Below, in pieces: positions 4,597-12,647 of a DNA stretch of 64,000 nt (the first letter of the stretch is position 1; each line of letters starts with the position of its first letter). Source of the stretch: Acidobacteriota bacterium (GTDB taxonomy: Bacteria > Acidobacteriota > Vicinamibacteria > Vicinamibacterales > UBA2999). Made by a program: the position numbers and the translations under genes. The DNA lies in NCBI GenBank assembly GCA_021730945.1, contig JAKFYH010000005.1:34-64033 (forward strand), read 5' to 3'. The notes beneath the pieces are model-generated. The model was not told the DNA's origin, searched no databases, and saw nothing but the letters and a program-made list of their open reading frames with translations.

Positions 4597-5534
4597 AACT
4601 CATCGTGACCGGCTCGATCGCGTTCGACTACCTGATGTCGTTCCCTGGCAAGTTCACCGAGCACTTCCTGCCCGAGCATATGCACCGGGTGTCGCTCAGC
4701 TTCCTGGTCGACACCATGGACAAGCGTCGCGGCGGATGCGCTCCGAACATCGCCTACACCTTGGCCCTGCTCGGCGAGCGTCCGTGCCTGATGGCCACTG
4801 CCGGCCAGGACGTTGGTGACTACAAGATCTGGATGGAAGCGGCCAACATCGACACGTCGCTGCTGAAGGTGATCGACGGCAAGTTCTGCGCCTCTTTCTT
4901 CTGCAGCACAGACGAGGCCAGCAATCAGATCGCCTCGTTCTACACCGGGGCCATGGCCAATGCCGGCGAGTTGTCGTTCCGCGGGATCCCGGGGCTGGAG
5001 AGCGGCCTGGTGATCATCTCGCCGAACGATCCGGGCGCGATGGTCCAGTACGCGGAGGAGTGCGCCGCGATCGGCCTGCAGTACATCTGGGATCCGGGAC
5101 AGCAGTGCGCCCGCATGGAGGGCGACCAGTTGACCGACGGCGTCAAGGGCGCGTTCATGGTGATCTGCAACGACTACGAGTTGGAGCTGATCCGCCAAAA
5201 GACCGGGATGGGCGAAGCGGAGATCCTGGCCCACGTGCCGCTGCTGGTCGTCACCAAAGGCGAGAAGGGCTGCACCATTCACACCCGTGACGGCGTCACT
5301 GACGTCGCGGCGGTGGCGCCGAACCGCCTGGCCGATCCCACCGGCGTGGGCGACGCTTTCCGTGGCGGCTTCATGAAGGGGCTGGCCATGGGCGTGTCGT
5401 TCCAAGTGTGCGCCCAGCTGGGCAGTGTCGCCGCAACCTATGCGCTTGAGCACCTGGGCGGCACCTCCCATGCGTATACTTGGAAGGAATTTACCGAGCG
5501 CTACGAACAGCATTTCGGCGCGCTGAAGGCATAA
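4593..5534 (+). CDS. PfkB-family carbohydrate/adenosine kinase
   Basis: [15 protein letters not shown]...GGCAPNIAY and the PfkB signature [17 protein letters not shown] overlap with mtnP. Confidence 0.82.
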
Positions 5535-5538
5535 CACC

Positions 5539-5946
5539 ATGATGAACGCGATCACCGCCGTTGCCGCCGCCCTTGCCCTGACCGTTGGGCTTGCCGCCCT
5601 TCACGCGCAGGCGCCGCAGAAAACCACCAACAGCGCCGTCTTTACCGCGGCGCAGGCCGAACGGGGCAAGACGACCTTTGGCGAAAAGTGCAGCGCCTGC
5701 CATGACCCGGCCCGATTTACCGGGGCGCCGTTCTTTGACGCATTCGGCGACAAGGCGCTCAAGGAAGTCTGGGACATTGCCAGCGGCACCATGCCCGAAG
5801 ACAACCCGGGCAGCCTGAAGCCGCAGGAGTATGGCGACGTGATTGCCTACTTCCTGCACTTGAACGAGTTCCCGGCCGGCGACGCCGAGTTGCCGGGCAA
5901 TGCCGGCGCGATGGCCAACATCAAGATCGAGAAGCCGAAGAAATGA
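5539..5946 (+). CDS. Secreted mono-haem c-type cytochrome
   Basis: Signal peptide, CSACH haem motif, and a distal Met in TMPEDNPGSL. Confidence 0.8.
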   Translation: MMNAITAVAAALALTVGLAALHAQAPQKTTNSAVFTAAQAERGKTTFGEKCSACHDPARFTGAPFFDAFGDKALKEVWDIASGTMPEDNPGSLKPQEYGDVIAYFLHLNEFPAGDAELPGNAGAMANIKIEKPKK

Positions 5947-6368
5947 CCCGCCTTCGCGCCCGCGGTTCGTCGGTGGGACTGGCGCTTGGTGGTGCCCTGC
6001 TGGTAACGGTGCTGTCGCCGGCGATGAGCGGCCAGGGCCAGCGATCGGTGAAGGCCGGCGTGTACACCGCGGCGCAGGCCGATCGCGGGCAGGAACTGTT
6101 CCGCAGCAAGTGCGCCAGTTGCCACGCGCCCAATCGATTCACCGATGACTTCTTTTACATCAGCTTCGCGGGCAAGCCCATGTGGGAAATGTTCGACGTC
6201 ATCAGCGACACGATGCCGGAAGACAACCCGGGCAGCATGAAGCCGGAGGAGTATGTCGATGTGATGGCGTACCTGTTGAAGCTGAACGCGTTTCCGGCCG
6301 GCGAGAGCGAACTGCCGACCGGAAAAGACGGGCTGAGCGCGATCCTGATGGAGAAGCCCGGCTCCTAG
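5943..6368 (+). CDS. Secreted mono-haem c-type cytochrome (tandem paralog)
   Basis: CASCH motif and TMPEDNPGSM. Roughly half the residues are identical to the upstream gene. ATGA overlap. Confidence 0.8.
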   Translation: MTRLRARGSSVGLALGGALLVTVLSPAMSGQGQRSVKAGVYTAAQADRGQELFRSKCASCHAPNRFTDDFFYISFAGKPMWEMFDVISDTMPEDNPGSMKPEEYVDVMAYLLKLNAFPAGESELPTGKDGLSAILMEKPGS

Positions 6369-9300
6369 GACGAGACGCCGGCGGCGACCTTCGCGCGGGC
6401 GGCGGCGGTGATGCGCGCGTATTTCGCCTGCATCAGCAGCCACTCGGTCTGCAGCAGGCGGACCTGCGCGTCGTTGAGCTCCGCCGAGGTGATGACGCCG
6501 TTCTCGTACGACACCTGCGCGATCGACACACTCTCGCGCGCCAGTTCCAGCGCCTTCTCCTGCGTGGCCACTACTTCCGCCGACGATTCGAGCGCCGTCC
6601 AGGCCGACTCCAGTTCCAGCCGGGCATTCTCGGTGGCGTAGCGCAAGCCGTGATCGGCCTGCCGCGCCTGAGACTGCGCCACGCTGCGGCGGGCCGCCGC
6701 ACCAGGGGCGGCCAACAGCGGCACGCTCAGGCTCAGCCCGAAGGTGTAGCTCTGGTTGTCGCGGGAGAGGAAGTTGTTCAGCCCATCCTGCTGATATTGC
6801 ATGTTGCCGGTGAACCCCAGGCTGGGCTTCCACTCGCTGTGCGCCAGGTTCGACGCGTACTCGGCAGCCTGGCGCCTGGCGGCGAATGCCTGAAGGTCGG
6901 GCCGCCTGGGCAGCTCGCTGTCGAGCACCAGACGCGTCTGGTTAATCACGGGCTCATCCAGCGAGCCTTCCAACTTCAACGCCTGGGTCTGGGGCATGGA
7001 CAAGACGCCGCGCAACGCCTGTAGCGAAATATCCACCTGTGCCCGGGCCTGGATGCGCCGGGCCCGGGCGTTGGCCAGTTCGACCTCCGCCTGCAGCACG
7101 TCGAGCCGCGCCACGGTGCCGGCGTCGAAGCGGGTCTTGGCCAGTTCGAGTTGGCGCGCGGTCAGCCGCACCTGCTCGTCGGCAACCGATACGCCGCGTT
7201 CGTTCATCAGCGCCGCATAGAACGTCTCGACGACCCGGTACTCGATTTCCTGCCGCGTGCGGTCAAGCTCCAGCTTCGTGGCGTCGAGCGAGGCGGTGGT
7301 GATGCCGTAGGCATGGTTCAGCCGCCCGCCGGTGTAGATCGGCTGGTGGATGTTGATCTGCAGGCTGTTCTCACGGCTGAAGGCCGCCTGAAACGTCTGC
7401 TCTTCGGGGCCGAAGACGCCGGCCGGAATCCGGATCACCGGGAAGCGTTGCGATGGCAGATAGCTGAAGCCGAGGTTCACCTGCGGCAGGAAAGCCGTCT
7501 TGGCTTCCTGCACCCGTGCCTCGGTCTCCACCACCTTTTCGCCGGCGATCTTCAGGCCCTCGTTGGCCGTGAGCGCCCGCTCGCGCGCCTGGGTGAACGA
7601 CAGCGTGATCACGCCGGATGATGCCGGCGTGGCCTCCTGGGCGAACGCCGTCGTGGTGGACAGCAGCCAGCCCATGATGGCCACCATCAGCACCACACCG
7701 GCGACGCGAACCGCGTGCGGCACGCCGGTCGCCGGCTGGGTCCGCCACGCCTTCACCCGCTCAACGATTCGGGCCAGCAGCAGGTAGGCCACCGGTACGA
7801 CGACCAGCGTCAGCAGGGTTGAGGTGATCAGGCCGCCGATGGTCGCGATCGAGATCGGCGAACGGAAGTCGCTGCCTTCACCGCTGCCCATCGCCGACGG
7901 CAGCATGCCAAGAATCATCGCGATGGTCGTCATCAGGATCGGCCGCAGGCGAATGGGCCCGGCCTTCAGGATGGCGTCCTTCACGGCCATGCCCTCGCGC
8001 ACGTATTGGTTGGTCAGGTCCACCAGCAGAATGGCGTTCTTGGTGACCAGCCCCATCAGCATCACCACGCCAATCATCGCCGGCATGCCGAGGTTCTTGC
8101 CGGTCAGCAGGATCGCCAGCAGCGCGCCGACCAGCGCCAGCGGCAGAGAAATCATGATCAGGAACGGCTCGAGGAACGACTCGAACTGCGACGCCAGGAC
8201 AATGTAGATGAAGGCGATTGCCAGGAGCAGAGCCAGGCCCATCGCTTCGGCCGATTCCTGCATCATCTCGACATCGCCGGCGAAGCCCCACTCGAATCCC
8301 GGTGGCATCGGGATGCCGGCCATCACCTTCGCCACGTCGTTGGTGACGTCGCCGAGTGGACGATCGGCCAGCTCGATGCCGATCTTGGCCTGCCGCACCC
8401 GCTGCTCGCGGTCGATGCTGGTCGGGCCAATCTCCGGCTCGAGGCTGACGACATCACGGGTGCGAACCACGGCGCCGGTCGGTGCGTAGAGCGGGGTCCG
8501 GGCGATTGCCGCGAAATCGTTGCGGAACGCCGGTGCCAGTCGCACGCGGATGTCGTACTCCTTGTCGTCCTCGCGCAGGCGCGTCGGCACGACGCCCTCG
8601 ACCATCCCCCGCAACTGCATGGCGATGGAGGCGACGTCGAATCCCATGTCGGCGGCCAGTTCGCGATTGACGCGGGCCGCCATCTCGGGCTGCCCGCTTT
8701 CAAGCGAGCTGTCGACGTCGACCGCGCCGGGTACCGCCTTCACCTTGGCGACGATCTCTTCGTTCAGTCGCTGCAGTTCGGCCATGTCATCGCCACGCAC
8801 GAAGACGTTCAGCGGCGCCTCGGCCGGCGCCCCCTGCATGAACTCCGGATCCGCCACGGTCATCTTGAGCATGGGAATGGCGGCGAGCCGCGTCCGCATG
8901 TCGGCCTTGAGCGCCAGGAGACCGCGCTCGCGTTCGTGTTTCTTGCCGGCCTTCACTCGCAGCGCGGCCTTCAACGGGTTGCCCTCGACGCCGACGGTCG
9001 AGAAGATCTGGCGCACTTCCGGCATCGCCGCCACCGTGCGCTCAACGTCAGCGACGTAGTCCACCGTCCGCTCGAACGAGGTGCCGGGCGGCACTTCGAC
9101 ATTGACCATGAACTCGCCACGGTCTTCCACCGGGACGAACTCGGTGCCGATGATCGTCAGCGTCGACATGCTGGCGAAGAACACCACGGTCGCGGTGGCG
9201 ACAATCTTCCACGGGTGCTCGATCGCCCAGCCCAGCAACCGGTGATAGCGCTGGTCGATGCGATCGTAGAAGTGCCCCCAGCGCTCGAGGAACCGGCCGG

Positions 9301-10798
9301 TCGCGGTGCGCGTGCGCTCCTCGAGAGGGATGAACCGCACGAATCGCGACGACAGCATCGGATCAAGGGTGAACGCCACCAGGAGCGAGATCGACACGGC
9401 GAAGGCGATGGTCAGCGCGAACGACTTGAAGAACTGGCCGACCAGACCGGTCATGAAACCGACCGGCAGGAACACCGCCAGGATGGTGAACGTGGTGGCC
9501 ATCACCGCCAGGCCGATTTCCGACGTCCCGCGGCGCGCCGCCGTCATCGGGTCCTCACCCTGTTCCATGTGGCGGTAGATGTTCTCGCGCACCACCACCG
9601 CATCGTCGATCAGGATGCCGATGACCAGCGACAGCGCCATCAGCGTCATCATGTTGATGGTGAAGCCGACGATATACATGAAGAAGAACGTTGCGATCAC
9701 CGAGGTGGGCAGCGCCAGGGCGGTGATCAGCGTCGAGCGCCAGTCGCGCATGAACACGAAGATGACCAGCACCGCCATGATGCCGCCGAAGATGATGTGG
9801 CCGCGGACGTCGCTGACGTTCTCCCTGATCGCCTCGGCGTCGGTGTGGACCGCCTTGATTTCCAGAGCCGGGAAGCCGGGCGCCGCCTTGGCCAGGGCCG
9901 CGTCGATCTTGTCCTGCACGTCGACGGTGTTGGCGCCGGACTGCTTGCGCACCGAGAACGACACCGCGTCGGCGCCGTCCAGCCGGGTGGTGGACAGGCG
10001 ATCCTCATAGCCGTCGACGACGGTGCCGACGTCCTTCACGCGGACAGTGGAGCCGCCGGCGGAACGGAGGATGACGTTTTCGATTTCGGCGGCCGATTGA
10101 TATTGCCCCTGCGTCCTGAGCGACACGGCCTTGCCATCGCGCCTGATCTGGCCCCCCGGCACATCGAGGTTGTCGGCCGCCAGCTTGGCCGCGACCTCGC
10201 TGAGCGGCAGGTTCAAGGCCTCCAGCCGGCGCGGGTCGAGATCCACGTGCAGTTCGCGCACTTCGCCGCCGTTCACCTCGACGGCGGCGACGCCGTCGAT
10301 CTGCCCGAGCAGCGGCTTCAGGTCGTCCTCCACCATGCGGCGAGTGACGTCCGACGACAGGTGTGATCCAACCGCGTAGGTGGCAATCGGCAGCGCGGCG
10401 ACGTCAAATCGCTGAATCGTCGGATCCTTGATCTGCTCGGGCAGGCGCTCGCGGATGGCCGCCACCTTCTCGCGCACCTCGGCCGTCGCCGCCTGCGGAT
10501 CGACTTCGAGACGCAGTTCGACGCCGACCCGTGAGAAGCCCTCGGTCGAGGTCGAGATCACCCGTTTCACGCCGGCGATGCCGGCCACCGCATCCTCGAT
10601 CGGTCGGGTGACGAGCGTCTCGACTTCTTCCGGCCCGGCGCCGGGGTAGACGACCGAGACGTTGACGAACGGAAAGTTGACCTCGGGGAAGAGGTCGATG
10701 CCCAGGCGCGTCATCGAGACGGCGCCGAGCACCATGAAGCTCAGGATGACCATCGTCGCGAAGACGGGTCGTTTGATGGAGGTGTCAGATATCCACAT
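6365..10798 (-). CDS. RND (AcrB/HAE1-like) efflux transporter fused in frame to a TolC-family outer-membrane factor
   Basis: 1477 aa with no stop. Residues 1 to ~1020 are RND-like ([17 protein letters not shown]...). The seam encodes the signal-peptide-like [26 protein letters not shown] (nt ~7723-7640). The last ~420 aa are TolC-like. Confidence 0.85.
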
Positions 10799-10810: not shown

Positions 10811-11962
10811 CTAGCGGCTCGCGACGGCGCGGACCTTCGCTCCCTCCGGGAGCGGACGCCGCGCGTCGGCCATGATCGTGTCGCCGGCGGCCAGGCCGCT
10901 GACAATCTGGATGCGGGTGCCGTCCGACAGGCCTTCGGTGACCGCGACAGCCGTCACCGTGTCGCCGAGGATCTTCCGGACGATGCGCTTGCCATCCCGG
11001 GTCATCACGGCTTCCCTGGGTACCAACACGGCGTCGGAGACAGTGGCCTCGATGATTCGCGCCGTCGCATACATTCCAGACAGCAGCGCGCGGTTGGGGT
11101 TGGGCACACGCACGTCTATCTGGAAGTGACGGTTGCGTTCGTCGACTTCAGGAGCGATGGCCGCCAGTTGCCCGGCAAACGCCTGCCCCGGCTTGGCTTG
11201 GACCGCGACCACGGCCTTGAGGCCCACGCGCATCCGCCCGGCCTCAAGTTCCGACACACCGGCTTCAAGCTTCATCTGCCGCATGTCGGCGACCACCACC
11301 ACCGGCAGGTCGCCGGGAATGGCGCCGGCGTCGTAGTTGCGTTCCACCACATAGCCGGTGACCGGGGAGGTGAGGGTGGCGTTGCGTTGGACTTCGCGGG
11401 CGCGGCGCAGCGCCGCATCGGCCTGCGCCAGGCTGGCCGCAGCCAGGTCGCGTTGGGCGACGGCCGATCGATGCGCCGTCTGCGCCCCCTCAAGGCGCTG
11501 GCGCGGCAGGGCGCCCTTGTCGAACAGGTTTCTGGCGCGGTCGAACTCGAGCACGGCGTTGGCCAGCCCGGCCTCCGCGGTCTCAAGACCGGCTTTGCCG
11601 ACCGCCACCATGGCGACAGCGGCGTCAGCTTGCGCATCGATCTCGCGGCGGTCGATGGTGGCAATGGGCTGGCCGATGGTGACGGCATCGCCGATGTCGA
11701 CCAGCATCCGGTCAATAGCCCCCGGCAGCTTGGGCTTGACGCCGACCCGGCTGAGCGGCGTCAGCGTGCCGGAGATCTCCAACGCCGACTCGATCGAACC
11801 GGTGGTGGCGACCACGGTGGTCACATCTACGACGGCCGGTGCCAGCGCCGTGGATTCGGGAGCCGCTTCGGTGGTGGTTGAGGCGCCGCAACCGGCGACC
11901 AATCCGGCGCCCAGCAAGACGACGGCAACAACGAGACGGGCGTGGGGCACACTACGATTCAT
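10811..11962 (-). CDS. RND efflux periplasmic adaptor (MFP/HlyD family) lipoprotein
   Basis: From ATG 11962: MNRSVPHARLVVAVVLLGAGLVAGCGAS with lipobox LVAGC, followed by barrel-sandwich/coiled-coil-like sequence. Lies directly upstream of the RND gene. Confidence 0.85.
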   Translation of the reverse strand: MNRSVPHARLVVAVVLLGAGLVAGCGASTTTEAAPESTALAPAVVDVTTVVATTGSIESALEISGTLTPLSRVGVKPKLPGAIDRMLVDIGDAVTIGQPIATIDRREIDAQADAAVAMVAVGKAGLETAEAGLANAVLEFDRARNLFDKGALPRQRLEGAQTAHRSAVAQRDLAAASLAQADAALRRAREVQRNATLTSPVTGYVVERNYDAGAIPGDLPVVVVADMRQMKLEAGVSELEAGRMRVGLKAVVAVQAKPGQAFAGQLAAIAPEVDERNRHFQIDVRVPNPNRALLSGMYATARIIEATVSDAVLVPREAVMTRDGKRIVRKILGDTVTAVAVTEGLSDGTRIQIVSGLAAGDTIMADARRPLPEGAKVRAVASR

Positions 11963-12647
11963 GGCGGGTCGCTCCAGCGGGCACCCGGGCGCCCGCGATT
12001 CCTTCTTCTGCACACTTGCACGACACAAAACTGGTCTCGACGCCGGACTGGAGTCCGGCGATGGTGACATTCAAGACGTCGCGCGCCAGCGCGTCGTAGT
12101 CTTCGCCCGAGGCCAGGCGGTGGCGGATGCCGACCACGGCCGGGCCGATCAGGCCCGCCCACAACATGTGCATGGCGGCGTCAGGGCTGAGAGACTTGGG
12201 AAACGCACCCGCATCGATGGCCCGCTGGATGGCGGCCACCGCATTGGCGAGCAGTTGCTGCAGGAACTCGAAGCCGTCCCACTGCTGGGTGATCCGGGGC
12301 ACCGAGCGGTCCACGAACATCAACAGGAAGTATTCCGGTTGCTCCTTGGAGAACTCGTAGAAAGCCCACCAGCACGCACGGACGTTCTCGAGCGCGTCGC
12401 CGGACTTCATGGCGGCGTGCACTTTGGCGTCGAGGCGATGGAAGCCCTCCTTCGCCAAGGCGAGGAAGATGTCGTCCTTGCTGGGGTAGTAGCTGTAGAT
12501 GGCCGCCGGGCTGTACTCGATGCGTTCAGCGATCTTGCGAATGGAAACGCTGGGGTAGCCCTCGGCGAGGAACAACTCGCGGGCGGCATCGAGAATGGAG
12601 TCGGTAACGGCCTGTCGTTCGCGGTCCTGGCGTTCTCTTGTACCCAT
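11952..12647 (-). CDS. TetR/AcrR-family transcriptional regulator
   Basis: N-terminal HTH: ILDAARELFLAEGYPSVSIRKIAERIEYSPAAIYSYYPSKDDIF. Overlaps the MFP start by 11 nt. Confidence 0.9.
   Translation of the reverse strand: MGTRERQDRERQAVTDSILDAARELFLAEGYPSVSIRKIAERIEYSPAAIYSYYPSKDDIFLALAKEGFHRLDAKVHAAMKSGDALENVRACWWAFYEFSKEQPEYFLLMFVDRSVPRITQQWDGFEFLQQLLANAVAAIQRAIDAGAFPKSLSPDAAMHMLWAGLIGPAVVGIRHRLASGEDYDALARDVLNVTIAGLQSGVETSFVSCKCAEEGIAGARVPAGATRHES

Follow-up and report, generated by a model that had tools for sequence, protein, structure and literature searches.

In a 64 000-nt stretch of DNA from a soil bacterium of the Acidobacteriota (assembly GCA_021730945.1, contig JAKFYH010000005.1, positions 34 to 64,033 of the forward strand; in the following 'the window' denotes this whole stretch) we found a gene on the minus strand (6365..10798) that joins an RND-type efflux permease, a segment resembling an internal signal peptide and a TolC-type outer-membrane factor (OMF) in one single open reading frame (ORF). 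This organization is seen in the translation, in the domain matches of both halves and in full-length fused homologues. Going by its sequence features, the gene probably encodes a natural polyprotein, in which the signal peptide of the OMF would act as a 13th membrane segment and signal peptidase would free a normal OMF.

Two components of an efflux pump in one reading frame

The ORF comprises 1477 codons plus the stop codon, starts with ATG and is preceded by an AGGAG Shine-Dalgarno sequence that ends 8 nt 5' of this ATG. Both the ORF listing and the translation, which is free of internal stops, bear out a first-pass annotation made from the sequence alone, in which the ORF had been described as uninterrupted. 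Long spurious ORFs are also present in other frames of the window (e.g. 8006..10366 on the plus strand, 786 aa); we regard 6365..10798 as a genuine coding sequence because it gives two full-length domain matches and because its open frame is conserved in relatives.

The RND part, of the HAE1 type, covers residues 1-1010 (7769..10798, minus strand) and closes with transmembrane segment 12 (TM12). Pfam family PF00873 (ACR_tran) matches residues 3-1008 over positions 1-1020 of its 1021-position profile (E 2.4e-269; 896.7 bits, cut-off 28), and the NCBIfam model RND_permease_2 (NF033617) matches residues 4-1010 with 826.9 bits, which is below its cut-off of 1250. No named NCBIfam subfamily was reached, the scores being 538 bits for MdtC (cut-off 1774) and 528 bits for MdtB (cut-off 1584). 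The translation contains the proton-relay motifs, i.e. the paired Asp of TM4 (LIDDAVVV) and the Lys of TM10, whose placement in these segments we take from homology to D407/D408/K940 of AcrB. Judged from these matches, the first half is an RND permease and not the orthologue of a named pump. The first-pass annotation had assigned a full RND transporter to residues 1 to about 1020; its completeness is upheld by Pfam and NCBIfam, while its end has to be moved to about residue 1010.

The OMF core extends over residues 1064-1477 (6368..7609, minus strand). The Pfam family OEP (PF02321) matches it in two tandem stretches starting at residue 1069 (E 5e-54), and the TolC family model TIGR01844 matches residues 1066-1474 over positions 3-398 of 414 (E 7e-48; the score stays under the curated threshold, 225 bits). 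The model for NodT/OprM-type lipoprotein OMFs (TIGR01845) scores lower than TIGR01844. A sequence search of the PDB with the OMF part matched OprM, TolC, CmeC and CusC. We also analyzed an AlphaFold model of residues 985-1477, which has a mean predicted local distance difference test (pLDDT) score of 70.6, with values of 80-93 for the long helices and lower ones for the strands, as expected for the monomer of a trimeric barrel. The order of the modelled OMF elements is that of TolC: a short strand, helices H1 and H2, two strands and a long helical hairpin, followed by a repeat of this arrangement. When the model was compared with the PDB by Foldseek, the top 44 matches were all OMFs (TolC, OprM, OprJ, OprN, CusC, SilC, CmeC, MtrE and VceC) with a probability of 1.00 and E-values down to 5e-16. 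Homology and structure prediction thus agree with the earlier proposal that the C-terminal part is of the TolC type; its size, given before as about 420 residues, is corrected to a core of about 414 residues.

Features of a signal peptide at the seam

TM12 is followed by a cytoplasmic connector and n-region (residues 1011-1031; 7706..7768) of basic character, with four Arg and one Lys versus one Glu, which is less conserved than its flanks. The next 22 residues (1032-1053; 7640..7705) consist of a hydrophobic h-region of 15 residues and a polar c-region of seven residues (STTTAFA). AFA occupies residues 1051-1053 and has its 3' end at nt 7640, so that the predicted cut, A1053|Q1054, falls between nt 7640 and 7639 and leaves QEAT at the new N-terminus. 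A core of 15 residues with a c-region of seven speaks for a cleavable signal rather than for a signal anchor, which has 20 or more residues, and the combined h- and c-region length of 22 is typical of signal peptides that are cleaved. In the AlphaFold model TM12 is followed by a second helix (1028-1052) and a low-confidence linker (approximately 1049-1060). Residues 1054-1063 (7610..7639), which would form the N-terminal tail of the mature OMF, have a pLDDT <50 and are hypervariable among homologues. Exact numbering also confirms the seam sequence and the three codons on which earlier alternatives had been built, namely W1018 (TGG, 7747-7745), V1026 (GTG, 7723-7721) and M1038 (ATG, 7687-7685), all on the minus strand.

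The conservation of the seam was analyzed in a set of close homologues made up of the window protein and 119 other clusters listed in a search of 5.8 billion proteins. All 120 sequences have Ala at position -1 of the putative site; at position -3, 119 have Ala and the remaining one has Val (V-S-A). Q or S occupies position +1 in 114 of the 120; the others have A, G or R there, and none has Pro. No Cys is found within 40 residues past the site in any of the 120, i.e. there is no lipobox. The mean frequency of the majority residue is 0.98 in TM12, 0.74 in the n-region, 0.81 in the h-region and 0.87 in the c-region; it drops to 0.46 over the next approximately 12 residues and is back to about 0.9 at the first helix of the OMF. 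From the site to the conserved motif L-x-F-x-x-A-x-x-R-A the linker measures 6-47 residues (median 16); it accepts in-frame inserts, and all changes in its length preserve the frame. A constrained site followed by free variation is the classic signature of a signal peptide with an unconstrained N-terminal tail of the mature protein, as the alignment suggests for this seam. The Sec signal peptide proposed by the first-pass annotation (basic n-region, hydrophobic core, AFA-Q) is therefore supported by residue rules as well as by the conservation of positions -3 and -1.

Some of the linker inserts deserve mention in their own right. In 15 of the 120 close homologues, including P0008, P0011 and P0017, the linker contains the peptide GTNLQVRP, which is encoded by a perfect palindrome, GGACGAACC-TTCA-GGTTCGTCC. 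We located this palindrome in four loci (L083, 1758-1777; L084, 687-706; L088, 1683-1702; L089, 1408-1427) and a variant of it in a fifth one (L092). In 18 further close homologues the linker reads SDSAREQT.ELRRDLAVAA..., and its DNA is likewise stem-forming. These inserts look like small palindromic elements, resembling repetitive extragenic palindromes (REP) or miniature inverted-repeat transposable elements (MITE), that sit in frame at the one tolerant spot of the gene; another possibility is that they form RNA hairpins which serve some function themselves. The linker in the window contains neither of the two inserts, the GTNLQVRP palindrome included.

Conservation of the fusion among close relatives

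The fused state is common among close relatives of the window protein. At least 119 other clusters with 82-90% identity were found, all of them 1456-1508 aa long and carrying both Pfam domains. They stem from independent NCBI, JGI, ENA and Logan assemblies, and the named ones are metagenome-assembled genomes (MAGs) of Vicinamibacterales or other Acidobacteriota. At the DNA level, 23 homologous loci from species-representative genomes and metagenomes could be read across the seam, and in every one of them the frame continues uninterrupted between TM12 and the OMF; the comparison of orthologous loci that had been suggested as a check on the seam thus comes out in favour of an uninterrupted gene. 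In five genome loci (L001-L005) the order of the genes for the TetR-type regulator, the membrane fusion protein (MFP, the periplasmic adaptor) and the fusion is conserved, with identities down to 54% for the OMF core and also down to 54% for TetR. Among the close homologues the RND and OMF parts reach mean majority-residue frequencies of 0.92 and 0.89, respectively. Taken together, these data indicate that the fusion is old within the lineage and that both halves are under purifying selection. As the fusion is conserved, it is presumably also expressed as a fusion.

A few observations on individual loci and sequences may be added. In one Vicinamibacteria MAG (L005, CAWHFZ010000006.1) the RND frame changes once at approximately 5400-5620, far upstream of the seam, and the seam and the OMF are intact; the change is either an assembly indel or a sign of a pseudogene. 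The closest genome loci, L001 (CAWARO010000006.1) and L002 (JAIEMQ010000015.1), show 78% and 72% identity over a 201-residue seam probe and lie on large contigs of MAGs labelled 'Acidimicrobiia' and 'Cyanobacteriota', whereas all other relatives are Vicinamibacteria or Acidobacteriota. Mislabelled or chimeric bins are a more likely cause of these labels than gene transfer. Five representative hits that could be mistaken for stand-alone OMF orthologues were rejected as truncated calls: P0125 and P0184 begin inside the OMF with a residue other than Met, and P0135, P0193 and P0264, which have no normal N-terminus, start at a Met that lies within the OMF or TM12.

Distant fusions and recurrence of the fused state

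An exhaustive HMMER search with residues 800-1477 against 1.84 billion cluster representatives yielded more distant examples. Among the best 150 matches, 25 were full-length fusions of 1447-1556 aa with 24-52% identity and matches in both halves, among them P0122, a relative with 52% identity. All 25 have a K/R-rich stretch and then a hydrophobic run after TM12, and in all except P0181 and P0185 a small-x-small site lies 14-25 residues past the last charge, often with Q or E next. With the window included, 24 of 26 fusions have a canonical site and 22 of 26 a positive n-region. At the seam of P0185 the A-x-A motif is replaced by a lipobox (FFSGC|TQG). This protein is encoded by the gene 5001-9539 of locus L105 (GCA_964477075.1), which has the order MarR-MFP-fusion and in which no other OEP-carrying gene is present among those called in 14.5 kb. 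By its sequence, P0185 appears to be a NodT/OprM-type lipoprotein OMF fused to its own pump. A lipobox at this place makes sense solely for a seam that undergoes processing by the lipoprotein pathway, which favours processed seams.

We further calculated neighbour-joining trees of the RND parts of the fusions and of 54 unfused representatives. On the tree of the full data the fused state changes nine times, and 8-11 times in 100 bootstraps, in trees that are rough in the sense that they use a distance method, contain representatives only and judge 'unfused' by the called length. The window RND part is 47-49% identical to unfused pumps compared to 26-37% for most fused ones, and the fused P0136 shares 66% identity with the unfused P0174. 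The polyphyly of the fused state is robust to resampling, and fusion appears to be recurrent; if so, the design works whenever it arises. One might go further and suppose that RND-OMF polyproteins are a recurrently selected design, in which the retained signal peptide is a functional 13th helix (e.g. an accessory one, as AcrZ or YajC on AcrB) and the biogenesis of the OMF is coupled to the pump in stoichiometry and space. We consider this bolder proposal speculative and rather doubtful.

Candidate fusions in loci of Bacteroidota, Helicobacter, Myxococcus and cyanobacteria (L006-L080) were rejected, since a stop codon 79-151 codons past the start of the match identifies them as unfused RND genes. 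One locus of an Anaeromyxobacter MAG (L035, approximately 6030-6110), matched by residues 1-188 of the seam-probe query at 37% identity in tblastn, shows how a fusion might come about. As in the window, the RND gene is directly followed by a homologous OMF with the same type of signal peptide; unlike in the window, the two are parted by a stop and a start. The RND sequence ends with PQPTGT-TGA, and 22 codons on, in the same frame, GGAGG and an ATG follow. The OMF opens with MSRIVAALVLALPLVARA|AEPLTLDAALEEAE (AEP after the cut), i.e. with an ordinary N-terminal signal peptide. Since both genes share one frame at a distance of 22 codons, a single stop-codon substitution would give a fusion like that of the window, and stop-codon loss is a plausible ancient origin of the fusion. 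The same-frame pair, together with the at least eight changes of state, suggests that operon neighbours merge easily if the second of them already carries a targeting signal.

Proposed processing and rival explanations

According to the model that we favour, the RND permease with its 12 TM segments would be made and inserted first, with a C-terminus that should lie in the cytoplasm by the AcrB-type 12-TM topology. The basic stretch after it would remain in the cytoplasm. Segment 1032-1053, presumably once the N-terminal signal peptide of a downstream OMF gene, would then insert with its N-terminus in and its C-terminus out as the 13th segment and take the OMF part over the inner membrane via Sec/YidC, where signal peptidase I would cut behind A-F-A1053. 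Residues 1011-1053 would work as a signal peptide although they lie past 12 TM segments and not at the N-terminus of the precursor. Two products would result: an RND permease of approximately 112 kDa, in which the signal peptide persists as an additional TM helix at the C-terminus, and a non-lipidated TolC-type OMF of approximately 45 kDa, which would move to the outer membrane, trimerise and dock on the MFP-RND complex encoded in the same operon. In this way the fusion would enforce 1:1 synthesis of the two trimeric partners and make a separate OMF gene needless.

Several points weigh against this model. Its direct basis consists of sequence features, conservation and fold, from which the membrane steps and the cleavage are deduced, and the signal-peptide call itself is based on rules and conservation. 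P0181 lacks a clear small-x-small site, and the 120 close homologues share descent, so that 120 of 120 does not amount to 120 independent observations. At V1026, GTG is in modest excess, with 15 of 19 Val codons compared to 53% elsewhere in the same genes, as would suit an internal start. Finally, the G-W pair of the h-region is invariant and its conservation is fairly high (0.81); this is compatible with cleavage, yet it would also suit a TM helix that persists and has some function itself. Alternatively, the protein might stay uncleaved, with 1032-1053 as a lasting 13th TM helix and the OMF working while tethered to the permease. The hydrophobic segment is better conserved than a typical disposable signal peptide, its G and W being nearly invariant, and a covalent stoichiometry would be compatible with RND and OMF both being trimers. 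However, the strictly small residues at -3 and -1, the lipobox of P0185 and the free variation past the site would all be left unexplained, and the geometry is unfavourable. As described in a review (PMC8277102), OMFs are 140 Angstrom long, with a 40-Angstrom barrel and a 100-Angstrom alpha-barrel, and their equatorial domain, which holds H1 and from which the N-terminus emerges, forms a belt round the middle of the alpha-barrel. H1 of this domain is the first conserved OMF element past the seam. It thus sits half-way up the alpha-barrel, and in the assembled pump a long distance separates the belt from the inner membrane, since both the periplasmic part of RND and the adaptor hairpins lie below it. 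Just 6-16 residues of tether, as found in most homologues, should not suffice to reach H1 from the inner membrane, and therefore an uncleaved protein would be unable to form the canonical assembly. We give a permanently tethered OMF little credence.

We find it similarly improbable that the OMF arises mostly from internal initiation, e.g. at the GTG 7723-7721 or the ATG 7687-7685 named in the first-pass annotation, with the full-length fusion as a by-product. Such a start would yield a perfect N-terminal signal peptide up to AFA|Q, and most homologues have V, I, M or L at the position of V1026. In the window and the 23 DNA loci, the codons at this position are GTG (15), CTG (2), TTG (1), GTA (2), GTT (1), GTC (1), CTC (1) and TTC (1), so that 6 of 24 sequences have codons that would be unusual as bacterial starts (GTA twice, GTT, GTC, CTC and TTC). 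No upstream Shine-Dalgarno motif is conserved across the 24, compared to AGGAG at the RND start and GGAGG at the OMF of L035, and M1038 is not conserved, being L in most homologues. Moreover, ribosomes that have translated the RND part would simply continue into the OMF, so that the fusion is made anyway and the cell has to cope with it. Some internal initiation may take place in this one genome; as a conserved feature it finds no support. The same annotation had also considered a recent loss of a stop codon, given that W1018 (TGG) is one substitution away from a stop and lies roughly where RND genes end. Be it as such a loss or as a sequencing or assembly error, the idea of an artefact or a decaying gene with non-functional read-through is rejected on grounds of conservation and can practically be set aside: the fusion recurs in at least 120 clusters from independent assemblies and in 23 of 23 DNA loci, it is present in the 52%-identical P0122 and in syntenic loci with OMF cores down to 54% identity, constraint is similar for the two halves (0.92 and 0.89), and the changes in linker length are all in frame. 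The proposal that the seam acts as an internal signal or 13th TM segment whose cleavage releases the OMF is supported by the conserved -3 and -1 positions, the hypervariable stretch past the site, the seams of the distant fusions and the shortness of the tether, from which we infer cleavage.

Relation to known systems

RND and OMF are partners in one tripartite pump (PMC8277102). The window has the same three components and the same gene order as the canonical tripartite operons (mexR-mexAB-oprM, AcrAB-TolC): a TetR-type regulator, an MFP that is a lipoprotein, a complete RND permease bearing the Asp pair of TM4 and the Lys of TM10, and an OMF with a full TolC fold. It differs from them in that no stop codon separates RND from OMF, in that the OMF signal peptide is internal and follows 12 TM segments, and in that the RND product would retain a 13th TM helix if it is processed as proposed. 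In contrast to OprM, the OMF of the window is of the TolC type and has no lipobox.

To our knowledge, very few natural bacterial polyproteins are divided by signal peptidase at an internal signal peptide. The closest mechanistic precedent known to us is the cytochrome b-c1 polyprotein FbcH of Bradyrhizobium japonicum, reported by Thony-Meyer et al. In FbcH the ORF of a polytopic inner-membrane protein reportedly continues into a partner with a signal peptide of its own, which acts internally and is cut by signal peptidase, giving two subunits of one complex. The window resembles it in the upstream part, whose end should be cytoplasmic, in the internal signal peptide and in the products, which would belong to one complex. 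It differs in the proteins concerned and in the fate of the released partner, which stays at the inner membrane in FbcH, whereas the OMF of the window must reach the outer membrane. Furthermore, cleavage of FbcH was reportedly shown by experiment, whereas we infer it for the window.

A fusion of usually separate partners is also known within the RND superfamily itself, where SecD and SecF are joined as SecDF in some lineages (e.g. Thermus thermophilus; PMC8277102). SecDF resembles the window protein in that two normally separate partners form one polypeptide. Unlike the latter, its parts are inner-membrane halves of one 12-TM unit which stay fused; it lacks an internal signal peptide, is not cleaved and has both parts in one compartment. 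Full-text searches of the literature yielded no description of a natural RND-OMF fusion, nor did term look-ups in part of a comprehensive review on tripartite pumps (Chem Rev, 2021) and in one paper from 2025. Databases already show both Pfam domains, yet name the proteins just 'efflux RND transporter permease subunit' or 'HAE1 family exporter'. The parts are therefore known and the domain pair is visible in databases, while we found no account of the fusion's biology.

As these names cover the RND half only, the OMF half is invisible to name-based surveys. OMFs, complete tripartite pumps and resistance-related efflux systems can be expected to be undercounted in Acidobacteriota and other soil phyla. 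If the model is true, the fusion would be a widespread and repeatedly evolved polyprotein split by signal peptidase, with one product for the inner and the other for the outer membrane. It would offer a tractable natural system for the recognition of internal signal peptides, for the coupling of OMF export to pump assembly and for the effect of a 13th helix on the RND trimer.

Genomic context

The operon is headed by the gene for the TetR-family regulator (11952..12647, minus strand; TetR_N match, E 2.6e-16). The gene for the MFP follows on the same strand; the translation as well as HlyD_D23 and HlyD_3 matches identify it. Its maximal ORF (10811..12070) overlaps tetR by approximately 120 nt, and with the probable start at M36 (nt 11965), which gives a gene of 10811..11965, the overlap with the end of tetR is approximately 14 nt. 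M36 precedes a lipoprotein signal peptide (...LLGAGLVAGC) with the lipobox LVAGC. The order tetR-MFP-RND(-OMF) noted in the first-pass annotation is thus confirmed, and it is syntenic in the relatives L001-L005. Scans of the window for tRNAs and with Rfam gave no matches.

On the other side of the fusion gene lie two tandem genes for small cytochromes c (Cytochrome_CBB3) on the plus strand (5539-5946 and 5943-6368), which overlap each other by 4 nt. The second one and the fusion gene are convergent and likewise share 4 nt at their ends (6365-6368), leaving no space for a terminator between them. With these convergent genes directly downstream of the fusion ORF, the operon has no separate OMF gene. 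The signal peptide of one of the neighbouring cytochromes c closes with LHA|Q, and AFA|Q at the seam is of the same local style.

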